Shown piece by piece: positions 1 through 43,991 of a stretch of DNA of 44,066 bases; position 1 is the first letter of the stretch, and each line of letters begins with the position of its first letter. The position numbers and the translations under genes are program-made. The stretch lies in assembly GCA_029093145.1 (NCBI GenBank), contig GCA_029093145.1_4347.1; one strand, given 5' to 3'. The DNA is from a phage. The notes under the pieces are model-generated. The model made no database searches. It saw only the letters and a list, made by a program, of their open reading frames with translations, and was not told where the DNA came from.

Positions 1-9
1 AATGACTAG

Positions 10-38
10 TTGACTATTACCTACGACCCTATTATATT
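10..38 (+). promoter_or_regulatory. sigma70-like promoter TTGACT-N17-TATATT upstream of first early gene
   Basis: TTGACT at 10-15, 17-nt spacer, TATATT at 33-38; SD GGAG then ATG at 72. Confidence 0.45.
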
Positions 39-5734: not shown

Positions 5735-6778
5735 ATGAGCTTACTGACATCACTAATCAGCCACCAGATTTGGCTGCAACGCACCGCATCTGGTGAAGTG
5801 AAAGACCTAGCACCGTTCATTCAGGAGATGCGGGACGAAATAAAACGGCAGGTGCTGTTATTCGGTGACGACGGGCGAAGCACTGCCCGACTGAATAAAT
5901 TGTTACGCGACCTTGAAGAAGCACTGGTGAGGCTTACGGGCGACTGGCAGACAAAGCTGACAGAAGACCTTAAGGAACTGGCGGCGTATGAGGCTGAGTG
6001 GAACGTAAAGACACTGACCGCCAACGTAGACGCGGAATTTGTTACGCCTACCGCTGAGCAGGTATGGGCCGCTGCCGAGTTTCAACCATTATCATTGAGC
6101 GACAAGCCCGTTGATTTCACCAAGCTGATGTCTGGATGGGGTGAAACGGAAGTAGCACGTCTTGTAACTGGAGTTAAGATGGGCTTTGTGCAAGGTCAAA
6201 CCACACGGCAGATTGTTAAGAATGTTGTTGGCGCTGGTGGACTAGCCGACATCTCAGAACGTAACGCGACTACGGTAATCCGCACCGCGCTGTCCCACGT
6301 ATCCAACGAGGCCCGTAACGAGACGTACCGCCAGAACGACGACATCATCGAGAAATATGAGTGGGTGTCAACTTTGGACAGCCGTACCAGCACGATTTGC
6401 AGGGCCAGAGACGGAATGACGTGGGAAATCGGTAAAGGTCCGATGCCACCAGCCCATCCTAATTGCCGGTCGTGCACGGCTCCGGTAATCAGTTCCGAGT
6501 TCGACTTCCTCGATAAAGGCGCAAAACGCGCGGCTAAAGGCGCGGAAGGTGGCACTCAGGTAAGCGCAGACACCACTTACTACGAGTTCCTTAAACAACA
6601 ACCGGCGTGGTTTCAGGACCAGGCGCTCGGCCCGGTGCGAGGTAAGATTTTCCGTAACAGCGGTATATCGCCGGAAGAGTTTCGCGTAATATCTGTAGAT
6701 GGTTTCGGGAATCCGCTCACGCTTAAGCAGATGGCGGAACTCGATAAACGTGTTGCTGATTATCTGAAAGGGGAATAA
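5735..6778 (+). CDS. head morphogenesis protein (Mu F / SPP1 gp7-like, putative)
   Basis: 347 aa ORF after portal with SD AGGAGGG; canonical position of minor head morphogenesis protein. Confidence 0.6.
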   Translation: MSLLTSLISHQIWLQRTASGEVKDLAPFIQEMRDEIKRQVLLFGDDGRSTARLNKLLRDLEEALVRLTGDWQTKLTEDLKELAAYEAEWNVKTLTANVDAEFVTPTAEQVWAAAEFQPLSLSDKPVDFTKLMSGWGETEVARLVTGVKMGFVQGQTTRQIVKNVVGAGGLADISERNATTVIRTALSHVSNEARNETYRQNDDIIEKYEWVSTLDSRTSTICRARDGMTWEIGKGPMPPAHPNCRSCTAPVISSEFDFLDKGAKRAAKGAEGGTQVSADTTYYEFLKQQPAWFQDQALGPVRGKIFRNSGISPEEFRVISVDGFGNPLTLKQMAELDKRVADYLKGE

Positions 6779-7239
6779 TGATGGGCTTTTTCAAAGTAAC
6801 TGACGTACCGTCTCGTCGCGTAGTCCAGTACGCCCGCGTGTCTGGCTCTGGCGAGAACGTGGTATTTATTGGGGACGAAAGTGTACTCGGTACACCGGTA
6901 GATGATATGCCGTTTGCATATAAAACCGGTATTGCGTTGCCCGCCGCCGGTATGCTTTATGAAATTCCGTATCTGGCGGACGCTGGCGACGTGTATTTCT
7001 CTGCGCAACCGCAGGACGCTGAACTGGCGGGCGGCAGCGCAACCATCACTGTCGAGGTTAAGGCAGGCAAAGCGCCGTATTCTCTGACCTGGTACAAAGA
7101 CGGTAAGGAAGTGGTGAATGCGCCTGAGGAGGCTCTGTCTCTGACGGTTAATGCGGTCGGCGAATACTTCGTTAAAGTTACCGATGCCGGTGGCGTAGAG
7201 GCCGTCAGTAAAGCGGCGAAGGTCGCTAAACCAGAATGA
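6778..7239 (+). CDS. Ig-like domain protein (possible capsid/virion decoration)
   Basis: Ig-like motif ATITVEVKAGKAPYSLTWYKDGKEV ... GEYFVKVTDAGG. Confidence 0.55.
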   Translation: MMGFFKVTDVPSRRVVQYARVSGSGENVVFIGDESVLGTPVDDMPFAYKTGIALPAAGMLYEIPYLADAGDVYFSAQPQDAELAGGSATITVEVKAGKAPYSLTWYKDGKEVVNAPEEALSLTVNAVGEYFVKVTDAGGVEAVSKAAKVAKPE

Positions 7240-7242
7240 TAA

Positions 7243-7270
7243 AAGGCCCCATTAAGGGGCCTTAGTTTTC
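7243..7270. terminator. terminator hairpin
   Basis: AAGGCCCC-ATTA-AGGGGCCTT then AGTTTTC. Confidence 0.6.
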
Positions 7271-7472
7271 AACGGAATCTTGTGTTTAAATCCTGCTCAT
7301 GGACAACCCTCAGAACAGTGTCATAATCCTCGTATCTTCCAGGTTCAAATATATCTAATGCCTTGTAAGCAGACATTGCGTCAGGGAAAACCTGCAGAAC
7401 CTTTTTAACCCGGCACAAGTCACCGTCGAACTCTTCATCGAACTCTTGAACTACTTCGCAAATTGCATACAT
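7269..7472 (-). CDS. small acidic hypothetical protein (67 aa), antisense moron
   Basis: Own promoter (7500-7528) and SD AGGAGGTGA; D/E-rich. Confidence 0.5.
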   Translation of the reverse strand: MYAICEVVQEFDEEFDGDLCRVKKVLQVFPDAMSAYKALDIFEPGRYEDYDTVLRVVHEQDLNTRFR

Positions 7473-7499
7473 TTTTCACCTCCTGTTTAAGTTAACTGA

Positions 7500-7528
7500 A
7501 TAGTACCCTATTATATTGGGGTGTGCAA
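7500..7528 (-). promoter_or_regulatory. class B promoter TTGCAC-N17-TACTAT with embedded AATAG-N4-CTATT dyad
   Basis: On minus strand TTGCACACCCCAATATAATAGGGTACTATTCA; near-identical copies at 16744-16772, 40040-40068, 41236-41264. Confidence 0.5.
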
Positions 7529-7580
7529 ACTATTTATTTACGTATTCCAGTTATTCCACCGAATTGTAAATGTTGGAATA

Positions 7581-7596
7581 AACTATTCGAATAGTT
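7581..7596. promoter_or_regulatory. perfect 16-bp palindrome AACTATTCGAATAGTT
   Basis: Self-complementary; half-site ACTATTC matches the promoter-associated motif. Confidence 0.4.
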
Positions 7597-7800
7597 GACT
7601 TTTCACTAAAAATATGATAAGCTCCACCTGAGCTTGTGAAGTATGAACAAGCGACCGCGGCGCGGGCAGGTAACGGAGCGGGACGTAAGTCCTGAGTGTA
7701 GTTACGCTGACGCGTTCGGAAGGGCCATACTCTATTGCTTGTGTAAAAAGTAACTGGTTTACTGAGATTACGCCGTTTCTATGTTTAAATGATAAGGACT

Positions 7801-7830
7801 AGCGCCCCGCTTTATGGCGGGGCTTTACTT
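7801..7830 (+). terminator. terminator-like hairpin upstream of spanin genes
   Basis: AGCGCCCCGC-TTTATG-GCGGGGCT followed by TTACTT. Confidence 0.4.
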
Positions 7831-7848
7831 ATCGAGAAAGGGGGAAAC

Positions 7849-8235
7849 ATGAATCTTAAAGCAACTGTCGTAGCAGGAGCATGTTTCATCATCCTGGCTT
7901 ACGCACACGGCATCTACCAGTACCGCAGCGGCTGGAGCGAAGGCCGGGCGAATCTCGTTTCGCAGCAACAGCAGAAAGCGCAGGCTGAGTTAGCGAAGAA
8001 AACACAACGGCAGCAGCAGGACGAATCAAAGGCCGCAGCCGCTGGCAACGAAGGCAAGACGAAATCAGAGGTGATTACCCGTGAAGTCGTTAAGTACATT
8101 AAAACACCTGGCCGTAGCGTGTGCACTTTTGACCCTGAGCGCGTGCAGCTCAAGTCCCGCGCCGTCGCCAACGCCAATTCCATCCCCGGATACGACGATG
8201 ATGCAGCCGCCGTGCAAACTGGCGCAGCCAAGTAG
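7849..8235 (+). CDS. i-spanin (Rz-like)
   Basis: N-terminal TM segment VVAGACFIILAYAHGI then Q/A/K-rich coiled-coil-like region; SD GGGGGAA; an overlapping lipoprotein gene in +1 frame. Confidence 0.55.
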   Translation: MNLKATVVAGACFIILAYAHGIYQYRSGWSEGRANLVSQQQQKAQAELAKKTQRQQQDESKAAAAGNEGKTKSEVITREVVKYIKTPGRSVCTFDPERVQLKSRAVANANSIPGYDDDAAAVQTGAAK

Positions 8236-8344
8236 CGACGCTGACGAAGATTTGGCTATCGACGTTCAGAATGCCGAATGTGTACGGCAACTGAGACTGA
8301 AAGTGTTCATGTTGCAGGATTACGTGAGGAATATTCTGGAATAG
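8081..8344 (+). CDS. o-spanin (Rz1-like lipoprotein), overlapping the Rz-like gene
   Basis: Signal peptide with lipobox LTLSAC followed by proline-rich segment PAPSPTPIPSP; embedded/overlapping in alternate frame of Rz-like ORF. Confidence 0.55.
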   Translation: MKSLSTLKHLAVACALLTLSACSSSPAPSPTPIPSPDTTMMQPPCKLAQPSSDADEDLAIDVQNAECVRQLRLKVFMLQDYVRNILE

Positions 8345-8426
8345 TTGCCTTGCATGTTGGGATAATTTATTCTTGACATGTAAATCCGGGTGGCCCGGAT
8401 TCCAACGTCCAGGGGACATACTGACT

Positions 8427-9128
8427 ATGAATCGTTTTTTACGTTATCCGTTCCAGGAAGAAGCTGGAGCAGAAGATAAAGCTGGTGGCGGTGACGCGCC
8501 GAAAATGTTCACCGCTGAAGAAGTTCAGGTGCTGATTGAGAAAGAAGTTGCCGGGCTTAAGGCTAATCAGGAAGCATTGTTGGCGGAGAAGAAAGAAGCC
8601 GCTCGCAAAGCAAAAGAGGCCGAAGAAGAACGGCAGCGCGCGCACCAGGAGGCGTTAAAAGCCGCTGGTAAGATGGATGAGTTCGAAAAGACGATTCGTA
8701 GCCAGTATGACCCGGTGTTAGCCGAGAAAGACGGTCGCATCTCCAGAATGGCAGAGCGTATCCTCGGCAGCGAACGTAAAGCGGTGCTAGGCTCTTTCGC
8801 GGGTGACTTTATTACCCCAGAAGCAGTGGACATTCTTGCGCCGTTCGTTAAGACTGAGTTCGAAGGCGATGATGTGGTTACTAAGTTTGTTGGTGCAGAC
8901 GGTAACGTAATCACGACTGACCCGGAACAGTTCCGCAAATACCTGCGCGAACACAAGGCGTTTTCGCATTTGATCAAAGCAAATGCAGCTTCCGGCGGCG
9001 GGGCTTCCGGTAGCAAAGGCGGCGGGGCCGCACCAGCGTTTAAAGACATGAGTGAAGCAGAGCGTTTAGCCCTGTATAAATCGAACCCTGCCGAATTTGA
9101 ACGGCAACTTAAAGCCCTGAGGAAATAA
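8427..9128 (+). CDS. scaffolding protein (putative)
   Basis: Charged, alanine/glutamate-rich coiled-coil-like ORF directly upstream of major capsid gene (track ORF opens at 8373). Confidence 0.6.
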   Translation: MNRFLRYPFQEEAGAEDKAGGGDAPKMFTAEEVQVLIEKEVAGLKANQEALLAEKKEAARKAKEAEEERQRAHQEALKAAGKMDEFEKTIRSQYDPVLAEKDGRISRMAERILGSERKAVLGSFAGDFITPEAVDILAPFVKTEFEGDDVVTKFVGADGNVITTDPEQFRKYLREHKAFSHLIKANAASGGGASGSKGGGAAPAFKDMSEAERLALYKSNPAEFERQLKALRK

Positions 9129-30292: not shown

Positions 30293-30580
30293 CTAACTAT
30301 AATAGCTAGCTATTAGGGTGTCAACCTGTTTGAACGAACCAACTACAAAAACATTTGCACCACGCTTACGCATCCGCTCGTGCTCTCGTAACTGGTGCGG
30401 GTCAGGCTTCGTGCTTTCGTCTTTCTTCACCTCGACGAACCAGACGATGCCGCCAGGGAGAATTACCAGCAGGTCGGGAGCGCCGGAACGTCCTTCGTAG
30501 GAGAGCTTGCGAACGAGGCCACCGAGGGCCTCGAATCGCTCTTTTGCGTATTTCTGTATGCGCCCCTCAGGCGTACTCAT
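30293..30580 (-). CDS. VRR-NUC domain nuclease
   Basis: PD-(D/E)xK-type motifs APDLLV ... FVEVKK; SD GAGGGGTG. Confidence 0.75.
   Translation of the reverse strand: MSTPEGRIQKYAKERFEALGGLVRKLSYEGRSGAPDLLVILPGGIVWFVEVKKDESTKPDPHQLREHERMRKRGANVFVVGSFKQVDTLIASYYS
30296..30324 (-). promoter_or_regulatory. class A promoter TTGACA-N17-TATAGT with AATAG-N4-CTATT dyad in spacer
   Basis: Minus strand TTGACACCCTAATAGCTAGCTATTATAGT; dyad 30301-30314. Confidence 0.5.
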
Positions 30581-42951: not shown

Positions 42952-43260
42952 TTGGATAAATTTACTGAAACAGTGACAGGCTGGCTTCTCGCTGCCGCGC
43001 TAGCCGGAGGGGTAATCGGACTACGACAACATAAGTCTGTTATTTCTGGCCCCATCGACGGATTCTGCTTTATCGCAACTGGCTTCACTTGCGCTGTATT
43101 CGGCGCGCCTCTTGCCGCTCAATGGTTCGGTATTACCGGAGAGCGCGAGATAGCTGGCCTCGGATTCATCATCGCAATTCTCTGGATGCCCATCTATTCC
43201 CGTCTCTCCGGTATCGTCTCTGGAGAATACATCGCTCGTCGAGGAGGCACAGATGAATGA
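42952..43260 (+). CDS. holin (putative, multi-TM)
   Basis: TTG start with SD GGAGG; hydrophobic segments; immediately upstream of endolysin region. Confidence 0.5.
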   Translation: MDKFTETVTGWLLAAALAGGVIGLRQHKSVISGPIDGFCFIATGFTCAVFGAPLAAQWFGITGEREIAGLGFIIAILWMPIYSRLSGIVSGEYIARRGGTDE

Positions 43261-43525
43261 GTTATTCTGGTTCGGTGGTATGCTGGCAATCGGGGGCACA
43301 TCGCTGTTTAATGTGTATCATCCCAGCGTGGACGACGGATTATTTGGCCGGGTGCTCTATATCCAGACTGCCATCGTCTGTGCTGCCGGATGTATCCACC
43401 TGTTACAGGGCAGCATGTCACCGACGCTGCCTGAGACATTAATCACATTAGTTGCGCTGCGCCAGATTCGTCAGGCGTGGCTGTCATACGGAGGGCATAA
43501 GCGTGTCTCGAAATATTTCAGATAA
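43253..43525 (+). CDS. small membrane protein (holin/antiholin partner candidate)
   Basis: SD GGAGG; hydrophobic segments LFWFGGMLAIGG and IQTAIVCAAGCIHLL. Confidence 0.45.
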   Translation: MNELFWFGGMLAIGGTSLFNVYHPSVDDGLFGRVLYIQTAIVCAAGCIHLLQGSMSPTLPETLITLVALRQIRQAWLSYGGHKRVSKYFR

Positions 43526-43991
43526 TGGATTGCATTTCTGTGCCGCGTTCGAGGGATTCCGCGGAACTGCGTATCGCGCTACGCCGAATGAGAAGTACCT
43601 GACGATAGGCTATGGGCACTATGGGCCGGACGTAACACCTGGCAGGACCATCACGCCAGGGCAGGGCCTCCTGTTACTGAATCGCGATATGGCTAAGGCC
43701 GTAGCCGCGGTCGATGCCGCAGGACACCATTCACTGACACAGGCACAGTTCGACGCCGTGTGTGACCTGGTCTATAACGCCGGTGCTGGTGTGATTGCGG
43801 CTACTACCGGCACGGGTAAGGCTCTGTGTTCCGGCGATATTGCAACACTGCGGGCTAAGCTGGCGCTGTTCATCAACCAGAACGGCAAGCCGTTACTCGG
43901 CCTGCGTCGCCGTACAGCCGGGCGTCTGGCGCTGTTCGACGGTAAACCGTGGCAAGAGGCTGAGGCTATTGGGCGCGCGGTGAAAGGTTGA
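43452..43991 (+). CDS. endolysin, GH24 lysozyme family
   Basis: FEGFRGTAYRATPNEKYLTIGYGHYG lysozyme motif; true start may be GTG 43503 preceded by GGAGGG. Confidence 0.85.
   Translation: MRCARFVRRGCHTEGISVSRNISDNGLHFCAAFEGFRGTAYRATPNEKYLTIGYGHYGPDVTPGRTITPGQGLLLLNRDMAKAVAAVDAAGHHSLTQAQFDAVCDLVYNAGAGVIAATTGTGKALCSGDIATLRAKLALFINQNGKPLLGLRRRTAGRLALFDGKPWQEAEAIGRAVKG

Follow-up and report, generated by a model that had tools for sequence, protein, structure and literature searches.

Overlapping spanin genes in the head module of a Kagunavirus phage, preceded by a possible regulatory leader

Introduction

The Rz and Rz1 proteins of phage lambda provide the paradigm for spanin action, and it is on this pair that the binding of an inner-membrane (i-) to an outer-membrane (o-) spanin, the restraint of the complex by peptidoglycan and the disruption of the outer membrane proposed below are modelled.

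Among catalogued spanins, those closest to the genes considered here form the ‘Jersey’ family of overlapped i- and o-spanins, known from phages Jersey, SETP3, K1G, K1H, K1ind1-3, HK578 and others (Kongari et al. 2018, PMC6139136). Jersey genes overlap by 155 bp; their o-spanins have two constant cysteines (Cys45 and Cys67) and a conserved second helix, their i-spanins consist of two helices joined by predicted beta strands, and separated variants with just 8 bp of gene overlap have also been discussed (PMC6139136). Phage T4 is the classic precedent showing that linkage to holin and endolysin is no defining requirement for spanins (PMC6139136), and spanins genetically separate from holin and endolysin were noted in a Guernseyvirinae-like phage in a 2019 genome announcement (PMC6763661). 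In the paper on phage Golestan, ORF7 and ORF8 were assigned as spanins.

We analysed a stretch of phage DNA of 44,066 nucleotides (contig GCA_029093145.1_4347.1 of GenBank assembly GCA_029093145.1), here called the window, for which a preliminary description, made from the sequence alone, had proposed an overlapping Rz/Rz1-like spanin pair in the head module. The sequence-level hallmarks of such a pair are present and conserved, and the proteins match Rz-like spanins among the PHROG profiles. The pair, its 155-base overlap and its separation from the lysis genes are already known (PMC6139136, PMC6763661); since both pair and position are in the literature and in GenBank, the proposal is correct but not new. 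Only the structured leader upstream of the spanins is possibly a new item, and a modest lead.

Results

Nucleotide comparison identifies the source of the window as a Kagunavirus (Guernseyvirinae), an E. coli phage. By megablast, positions 7600-8450 matched 330 phage records, and in 179 of these the match spanned 80% or more of the query. Escherichia phages KMB35, SCS44, Bas74 and Golestan match best, at ~97% identity, and K1ind3 is 96.1% identical over the same segment. GenBank records of these relatives already name both genes ‘spanin’, ‘Rz-like spanin’ or ‘o-spanin’. The one-strand gene order of Bas74 runs through small genes, two holins, endolysin, small genes, terminase, portal, head morphogenesis, Hoc-like, a small minus-strand ORF, spanins, scaffold, major capsid and connector to the tail genes, with a separate superinfection-immunity gene annotated elsewhere.

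The proposed location between head morphogenesis and scaffold genes therefore holds for the window in outline, but the head-morphogenesis gene is not the immediate upstream neighbour: the spanin pair follows a Hoc-like decoration gene (6778-7239), a minus-strand ORF of just 67 aa (7269-7472) and a non-coding leader of ~380 nt. After the Hoc-like gene, facing the minus-strand ORF, lies a bidirectional terminator-like hairpin (7243-7263), so that read-through into the spanin region from upstream is probably limited.

The candidate i-spanin gene (7849-8235, plus strand) runs from an ATG at 7849 to a stop at 8235 and encodes 128 aa; a Shine-Dalgarno sequence, GGGGG, lies 5' of the ATG at 7840-7844. 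Hydropathy bears out the earlier proposal of a membrane-anchored product, placing an N-terminal transmembrane domain (TMD) at about residues 5-23, the sole strongly hydrophobic 19-residue window in the protein (mean Kyte-Doolittle 1.72). A single-sequence AlphaFold model shows residues 3-62 as one helix (pLDDT 66-85), with the rest below 50; the overall pLDDT of the two single-sequence AF2 models, one for each protein, is low (59 and 64), and they are used for secondary structure only. Cys92 is invariant in our alignment (A2), and the conserved C-terminal region reads EVVKYIKTPGRxVC. Among PHROG profiles, phrog_2536 (‘Rz-like spanin’) matches the protein with E = 2.5e-56, covering positions 1-128 of 129.

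The candidate o-spanin gene (8081-8344, plus strand) starts with GTG, ends with TAG and lies in the +1 frame relative to the i-spanin gene, encoding an 87-aa precursor. Its Shine-Dalgarno sequence, GAGGTG (8068-8073, plus strand), is 7 nt upstream of the GTG; a 5-nt Shine-Dalgarno match precedes this codon in every Kagunavirus-type locus listed, and locus L034 has the same GAGGTGA-N6-GTG. The lipoprotein features described earlier for this alternate frame, a lipobox (given as LTLSAC) and a Pro-rich stretch, were both confirmed. The signal comprises a basic n-region (MKSLSTLKH), an h-region (LAVACALLTL) and the lipobox L-S-A-C22, with MKSLSTLKHLAVACALLTLSA ahead of the predicted cut and C22-S behind it; Cys22 is encoded by nt 8144-8146. 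The residue at +2 is Ser, with no Asp inner-membrane retention signal. Nine of the first 30 mature residues are Pro, forming a linker, and the conserved cysteines Cys45 and Cys67 are found in all homologues listed. An amphipathic C-terminal helix (residues 54-86, pLDDT 80-91) is the best-modelled part of the single-sequence AF2 prediction. PHROG matches are phrog_1267 (E = 4.8e-21, residues 10-86) and phrog_5672 (E = 2.3e-30), the latter assembled from 47-aa o-spanin calls. A six-frame search of the 44 kb window with a lipoprotein-signal regular expression returned this ORF as the only credible lipobox ORF; the other matches, antisense to large genes and without a hydrophobic core, were rejected, and no credible second lipoprotein or u-spanin candidate was found across the whole window.

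The two genes share a dual-coding overlap of 155 nt (8081-8235, plus strand). Codon-position diversity among 34 distinct Kagunavirus versions of 7849-8344 follows the i-spanin frame 5' of the overlap, where position 3 has a diversity of 0.143 vs 0.039 and 0.037 at the other positions, and the o-spanin frame after the i-spanin stop, where position 3 has 0.159 vs 0.032 and 0.015; inside the overlap the pattern is intermediate between the two frames. Judged by these comparisons, both frames are coding and under constraint, and the lipobox ORF is a gene.

Relatives were searched by tblastn with the portal, head-morphogenesis, Hoc-like, spanin, scaffold and capsid proteins of the window. Every relative whose contig extends over these genes (~100 loci) has them in the order portal, head morphogenesis, Hoc-like, i-spanin, o-spanin, scaffold; this includes, as far as the contigs reach, all 46 loci of a first set and the Guernseyvirinae loci of a second, with identities of 63-99% to Jerseyvirus and Kagunavirus loci. 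All 46 first-set loci, and further loci, retain the lipobox ORF, the opposite of the non-conservation that the preliminary description had named as a ground for doubt. Signal-peptide sequences diverge in phages pink, PhiSTP2 and Hafnia TS33 and in IMG/VR contigs, down to ~45% identity; in these relatives the distance of the lipobox is nevertheless unchanged, and the PPCK and AEC cysteines are retained along with the motif DEDLxIDVQNAECxRQLRLKV. From Kagunavirus to TS33 and lambdoid-type contigs, the o-spanin ORF, the lipobox position, Cys45, Cys67 and the C-terminal helix are all preserved. A lipobox is found in all relatives, the +2 residue being S, Q, A, P or N, and the overlap between the two genes ranges from 4 nt to 164 nt; PhiSTP2 shows the separated variant, with 8 bp.

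Whether relatives keep spanins in the head module, a check suggested at the outset, can be answered in the affirmative for the 46 first-set loci, for further Guernseyvirinae and for Dhillonvirus, where phage KarlBarth has a homologous pair between a minor capsid gene and the scaffold/capsid genes. The head-module location is thus, on the evidence of gene order, a conserved trait of Guernseyvirinae and Dhillonvirus.

In some contigs, a quite different scaffold/capsid module lies immediately 3' of the same spanins.

As the preliminary description had stated, holin and endolysin are encoded far away: two holin-like membrane protein genes lie at 42952-43260 and 43253-43525 and an endolysin gene (Phage_lysozyme, PF00959, E = 4.2e-26) at 43506-43991, all on the plus strand. 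The spanin pair is ~34.6 kb from them directly and ~7.9 kb through the window ends; if the window is a whole circular or permuted genome, the lysis genes lie ~7.9 kb upstream on the same strand. Bas74, a close relative, is deposited as circular. No spanin candidate was found adjacent to holin and endolysin, and the small ORFs beside the Bas74 endolysin have neither TMD nor lipobox.

Homologues of both proteins do occur directly after the endolysin in other phage contigs, with 36-43% identity for the i-spanin and 36-49% for the o-spanin. In the IMG/VR contig L108 a holin (PF16080, PF04971) is followed by Phage_lysozyme, the i-spanin and the overlapping o-spanin; contig L105 has the same holin-lysozyme-spanin arrangement, and Klebsiella phage 2b LV-2017 has the order Q antiterminator, S, lysozyme, spanin, terminase. 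This lysis-cassette context constitutes the strongest available support for a spanin function. Because homologues reside in lysis cassettes elsewhere, the head-module position is a trait of the lineage and not a property of the protein family.

Compared with described systems, the window pair shows no difference of substance from the Jersey family, of which it is another member: the genes are the same, with the same 155-nt overlap, Cys45 and Cys67, an i-spanin predicted to be helical in part and a conserved C-terminal o-spanin helix. It resembles lambda Rz/Rz1 in combining a predicted type II inner-membrane protein with a +1-frame outer-membrane lipoprotein encoded by the same DNA, in the Pro-rich mature o-spanin and in the presence of periplasmic cysteines in both pairs. 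Unlike the lambda genes, those in the window are overlapped rather than fully embedded and lie apart from holin and endolysin; the i-spanin has 128 aa here vs 153 in lambda and the o-spanin 87 vs 60, with a predicted C-terminal helix. Searched up to E = 1, neither protein matched a Pfam-A model above its curated cut-off (a DUF2514 match, E = 0.033 in the Pfam/NCBIfam scans, is sub-threshold), and NCBIfam gave nothing above cut-off either, the sole Rz1-type hit being P2_Rz1 (LysC) with E = 0.006 and 16.7 bits vs a cut-off of 27; these models therefore detect no sequence kinship to lambda Rz/Rz1.

The o-spanin of T4 likewise is comparatively large and is predicted to have a C-terminal helix (PMC6139136), but the PseT.3/PseT.2 genes belong to the separated and not the overlapped type, and we saw no relationship in sequence. 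In the lambdoid-type cassettes (Klebsiella phage 2b LV-2017, L105, L108) both proteins are homologous to those of the window and the genes overlap in the same way, but the pair keeps its canonical slot in the series Q, holin, SAR-type lysozyme, spanins, terminase. The homologous Dhillonvirus pair (KarlBarth, HK578) lies, like that of the window, between minor capsid (head morphogenesis) and scaffold/capsid genes; it differs in belonging to another genus, in a shorter i-spanin and in a minus-strand gene that follows the pair.

The ~220-nt leader upstream of the spanin genes folds better than shuffled sequences (z = -3.46). A sigma-70-type promoter-like element (7595-7623, plus strand) precedes it, with a -35 hexamer TTGACT, a 17-nt spacer ending in TGA (extended -10) and a -10 hexamer TAAGCT, 5' of which lies the palindrome GGAATAAACTATTC (7575-7588). 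Both hexamers stay aligned and conserved in Kagunavirus, Jerseyvirus, phage pink and Hafnia phage TS33. Within the leader, the element is followed by an irregular 22-bp RNA hairpin (7654-7728, plus strand) with a GNRA or UNCG-type loop, which ends just before an invariant AAGGGCC. A covariance model of this hairpin (R1), built from Kagunavirus sequences, has one match in the window, one in each Kagunavirus- or Jerseyvirus-type locus (~43 bits in Jerseyvirus) and three weak matches (~17 bits) in the pink-type (type-C) lineage; there was no match in the other Guernseyvirinae lineages searched. In an alignment that is fitted to the model and consists of related sequences, pairing holds in 94.3% of cells, as against 22-40% in slid controls, and both sides change at 11 of the 22 pairs.

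Closer to the genes, a terminator-like hairpin (7804-7823, plus strand) has an 8-bp GC-rich stem and a 4-nt loop and is followed by the interrupted T tract TTTACTTATC. This hairpin, whose presence before the i-spanin gene had been pointed out beforehand, has a predicted energy of -17.9 kcal/mol (z = -3.3), ends 25 nt before the i-spanin ATG and covaries at two pairs (C-G/U-A/G-C and G-C/A-U), with 99% of cells paired; the Golestan supplement lists it as predicted terminator T03. From its position directly upstream, it could reduce spanin expression.

Rfam holds no family matching the leader region in the window or in six diverse loci. There is no second genomic copy of the leader hairpin of the kind seen in the paired putL/putR, R1 and the motif TTCGGAAGGGCC each occurring once, and RNAalifold found no single common fold for the whole leaders of four lineage types. 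Within the leader, good support is confined to two structures, the 22-bp hairpin and the terminator hairpin. A long-range pairing between the 5' end of the leader and the region past the terminator depends on a single between-genus contrast and is not claimed. The 36-aa ORF annotated in GenBank at 7643-7753 was rejected as a gene: indels break its frame in locus L058, a start is missing in locus L020, and compensatory changes in the region also speak against it. The disruption of this frame in relatives marks the leader region as non-coding.

Past the o-spanin stop, before the scaffold gene begins at 8428, a second promoter-like element, TTGCCT-N17-TATTCT, lies on the plus strand within 8345-8401, with a second copy of the palindrome, GGGATAATTTATTC, inside it (8359-8372) and a hairpin after it (8383-8401) whose pairing survives the replacement of AUCC/GGAU by CACC/GGUG between Kagunavirus and Jerseyvirus. 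Several other lineages have a strong terminator directly after the o-spanin gene. A direct repeat, GAATAGTTGMCTT (7589 and 8339), was considered as the mark of a mobile cassette and rejected, the simpler explanation being that both copies are promoter-like -35 contexts; a third, similar copy is found at window positions 4-16, and we found no evidence for mobility of the spanin region. As a whole, this arrangement suggests that the spanin pair may form a small, autonomous unit of transcription within the head module.

Discussion

The reading we favor, with a probability of roughly 0.9, is that this Kagunavirus phage makes its two-component spanin from the two genes, which represent a member of the overlapped Jersey family. 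A spanin function is suggested by the architecture of the genes together with the genomic context of their homologues. By this account, transcripts would start at the promoter-like element at 7595-7623 and pass through the structured leader and a leaky terminator hairpin into the spanin genes. The i-spanin would be held in the inner membrane by its N-terminal TMD and would extend a putatively helical domain into the periplasm, while the o-spanin would be translated from the GTG inside the i-spanin gene, lipidated at Cys22 and, as its +2 Ser predicts, sorted to the outer membrane. By analogy with lambda, and in line with the published family analysis (PMC6139136), the two proteins would bind each other through their C-terminal portions, probably through the o-spanin helix at 54-86 and the EVVKYIKTPGRxVC region of the i-spanin, and homotypic disulfides may form via i-spanin Cys92 and via o-spanin Cys45 and Cys67. 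The lambda model further suggests that the complex would bridge the periplasm, restrained by the peptidoglycan mesh, until the wall is destroyed by the holin and endolysin encoded at 42952-43991, whereupon it would fuse or disrupt the outer membrane. Because spanin activity would thus be gated by degradation of the wall, the spanin genes do not have to be physically linked to that of the holin.

Two other readings of the genes themselves would make the pair something else. If the +1-frame lipobox ORF were a chance frame and only the TMD protein were made, the GTG start, the many GenBank records that give a 47-aa remnant or nothing in this frame and the derivation of phrog_5672 from such 47-aa calls would all be expected. 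A chance frame would not be expected to concentrate its diversity at o-frame position 3 past the i-spanin stop, nor to keep its lipobox, both cysteines and the C-terminal helix while its signal peptide changes; nor would the sole credible lipobox ORF of the window be expected to have GAGGTG 7 nt before its GTG. We consider this reading effectively refuted already, with next to no likelihood left. Somewhat less remote, though very improbable, is a membrane protein and a lipoprotein with a role other than lysis, such as superinfection exclusion or receptor masking of the T5 Llp or Cor type; this would explain why the pair is absent from the lysis cassette and lies unlinked behind a promoter-like element of its own. 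Yet homologues of both proteins fill the canonical spanin slot after the endolysin in other phages, the phage offers no other spanin candidate, and a TMD protein and a lipoprotein in overlapping frames are the signature of spanins (PMC6139136); in Bas74, moreover, superinfection immunity is annotated to a separate gene.

A further alternative, which we regard as unlikely but deserving of more weight than either of these, concerns expression: the hairpin at 7804-7823 may be an efficient terminator, leaving the spanin genes essentially silent or dependent on antitermination or processing through the leader. Its stable, covarying GC stem fits such a role, as does its position ~180 nt 3' of a conserved promoter-like element with the 22-bp hairpin between, a layout resembling lambda PR'-6S RNA-tR'. 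The T tract, however, is short and interrupted in both Kagunavirus (TTTACTTATC) and Jerseyvirus (TTAGCGTATA), so that termination is predicted to be only partial; at this place more distant Guernseyvirinae carry another stem-loop, with no T run, and the Bas74 annotation includes no Q- or N-like antiterminator. Since the spanin genes are under purifying selection, they must be expressed.

We suggest only tentatively, as something rather less probable than not, that the 220 nt before the spanin genes, driven by the promoter-like element and including the 22-bp hairpin and the leaky terminator, form an undescribed cis-regulatory RNA. Candidate roles for it are RNase III processing, attenuation and put-like antitermination. 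If this is true, the leader RNA would set the amount or timing of the spanins, possibly also of the downstream scaffold and capsid products, and would explain why the spanin genes can persist as an autonomous unit inside the head module.

The spanin pair itself, as another member of a catalogued family at a position already noted, is of little import. The occurrence of one spanin family both in lambdoid cassettes and in head modules does make a clean natural case that spanins can do without linkage to holin and endolysin. The o-spanin also illustrates an annotation problem: many deposited Kagunavirus and Jerseyvirus genomes, which are those of therapy-candidate phages, either leave this gene unannotated or call a 47-aa product from an internal ATG (position 8201 in the window; MMQPPC...) that has no signal peptide, so that automated inventories of lysis genes are wrong at this locus. 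In the record of phage BPS11Q3, the o-spanin is annotated from the same GTG start as that used here.

A promoter-like element and an RNA hairpin precede the spanin genes

The region upstream of the spanin genes (window 7595-7728; also 2263-2335 in L003 and 2820-2892 in L077, two loci of relatives) combines a promoter-like element kept in relatives (TTGACT-N17 with TG-TAAGCT) and a covarying 22-bp irregular RNA hairpin that comes after it. This hairpin, for which Rfam returned no match, is found once in the window and once in every Kagunavirus- or Jerseyvirus-type locus, upstream of the spanin genes in every case; weak matches were obtained in three pink-type loci, and none in other lineages. 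Overlapping the structured RNA is a 36-aa ORF (7643-7753) annotated as a 'hypothetical protein' in GenBank relatives (e.g. Bas74_0007). In close relatives the frame of this ORF is broken or its start is missing, so it probably does not represent a gene.

A palindrome, GGAATAAnnTATTC, is present in two copies (7575-7588 and 8359-8372), each adjoining or lying inside one of the two promoter-like elements on either side of the spanin pair. The copy at 8359-8372 is GGGATAATTTATTC in the window and GGAATAATTTATTC in relatives. A phage regulator could use the palindrome as its operator. A further hairpin, AATCCGGG-TGG-CCCGGATT (8383-8401), sits in the scaffold gene's 5' region and retains its pairing in Jerseyvirus through two compensatory changes (ACACCGGG...CCCGGTGT).

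Elsewhere in the window, a further TAGTTGACT-type promoter was found on the plus strand (4-38), along with three near-consensus promoters (TTGACA-N17-TATAGT) on the minus strand at 30324, 33738 and 36579, which stand in front of replication genes and share the spacer motif AATAG(C/T)T(A/C)GCTAT.

Boundaries of the spanin pair

Six Kagunavirus-like contigs (L007, L011, L018, L036, L037 and L046) carry the same spanins (i-spanin identity 89-98%). The scaffold that comes directly after them is a different one (42-45% identity), and no homologue of the window's major capsid protein could be detected behind the spanins in these contigs, which makes the spanin 3' end a mosaic junction. In other Guernseyvirinae lineages, a strong intrinsic terminator lies right after the o-spanin stop (L005 3031-3060; L091 3592-3620; also L092 and L089), followed by extra genes and then the scaffold, an arrangement in which the spanin pair looks like a self-contained operon.

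On the upstream side, the distance from the Hoc-like gene to the i-spanin gene (window 7240-7848) ranges from ~350 to ~1100 nt among near-identical phages (loci L007-L046), and this interval looks like a hot-spot where small ORFs insert. In the window, a bidirectional terminator-like hairpin, AAGGCCCC-ATTAA-GGGGCCTT (7241-7270), separates the Hoc-like gene from a convergent minus-strand ORF of 67 aa (7269-7472) with a weak match to phrog_27256.

The o-spanin start

The conserved start of the o-spanin gene is the GTG at 8081, which is accompanied by a Shine-Dalgarno sequence. Many deposited Kagunavirus and Jerseyvirus records use an internal ATG, yielding a 47-aa protein (MMQPPC...; window 8201-8344 vs. 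8081-8344) without the signal peptide and lipobox, and PHROG 5672 is made up of such truncated calls.
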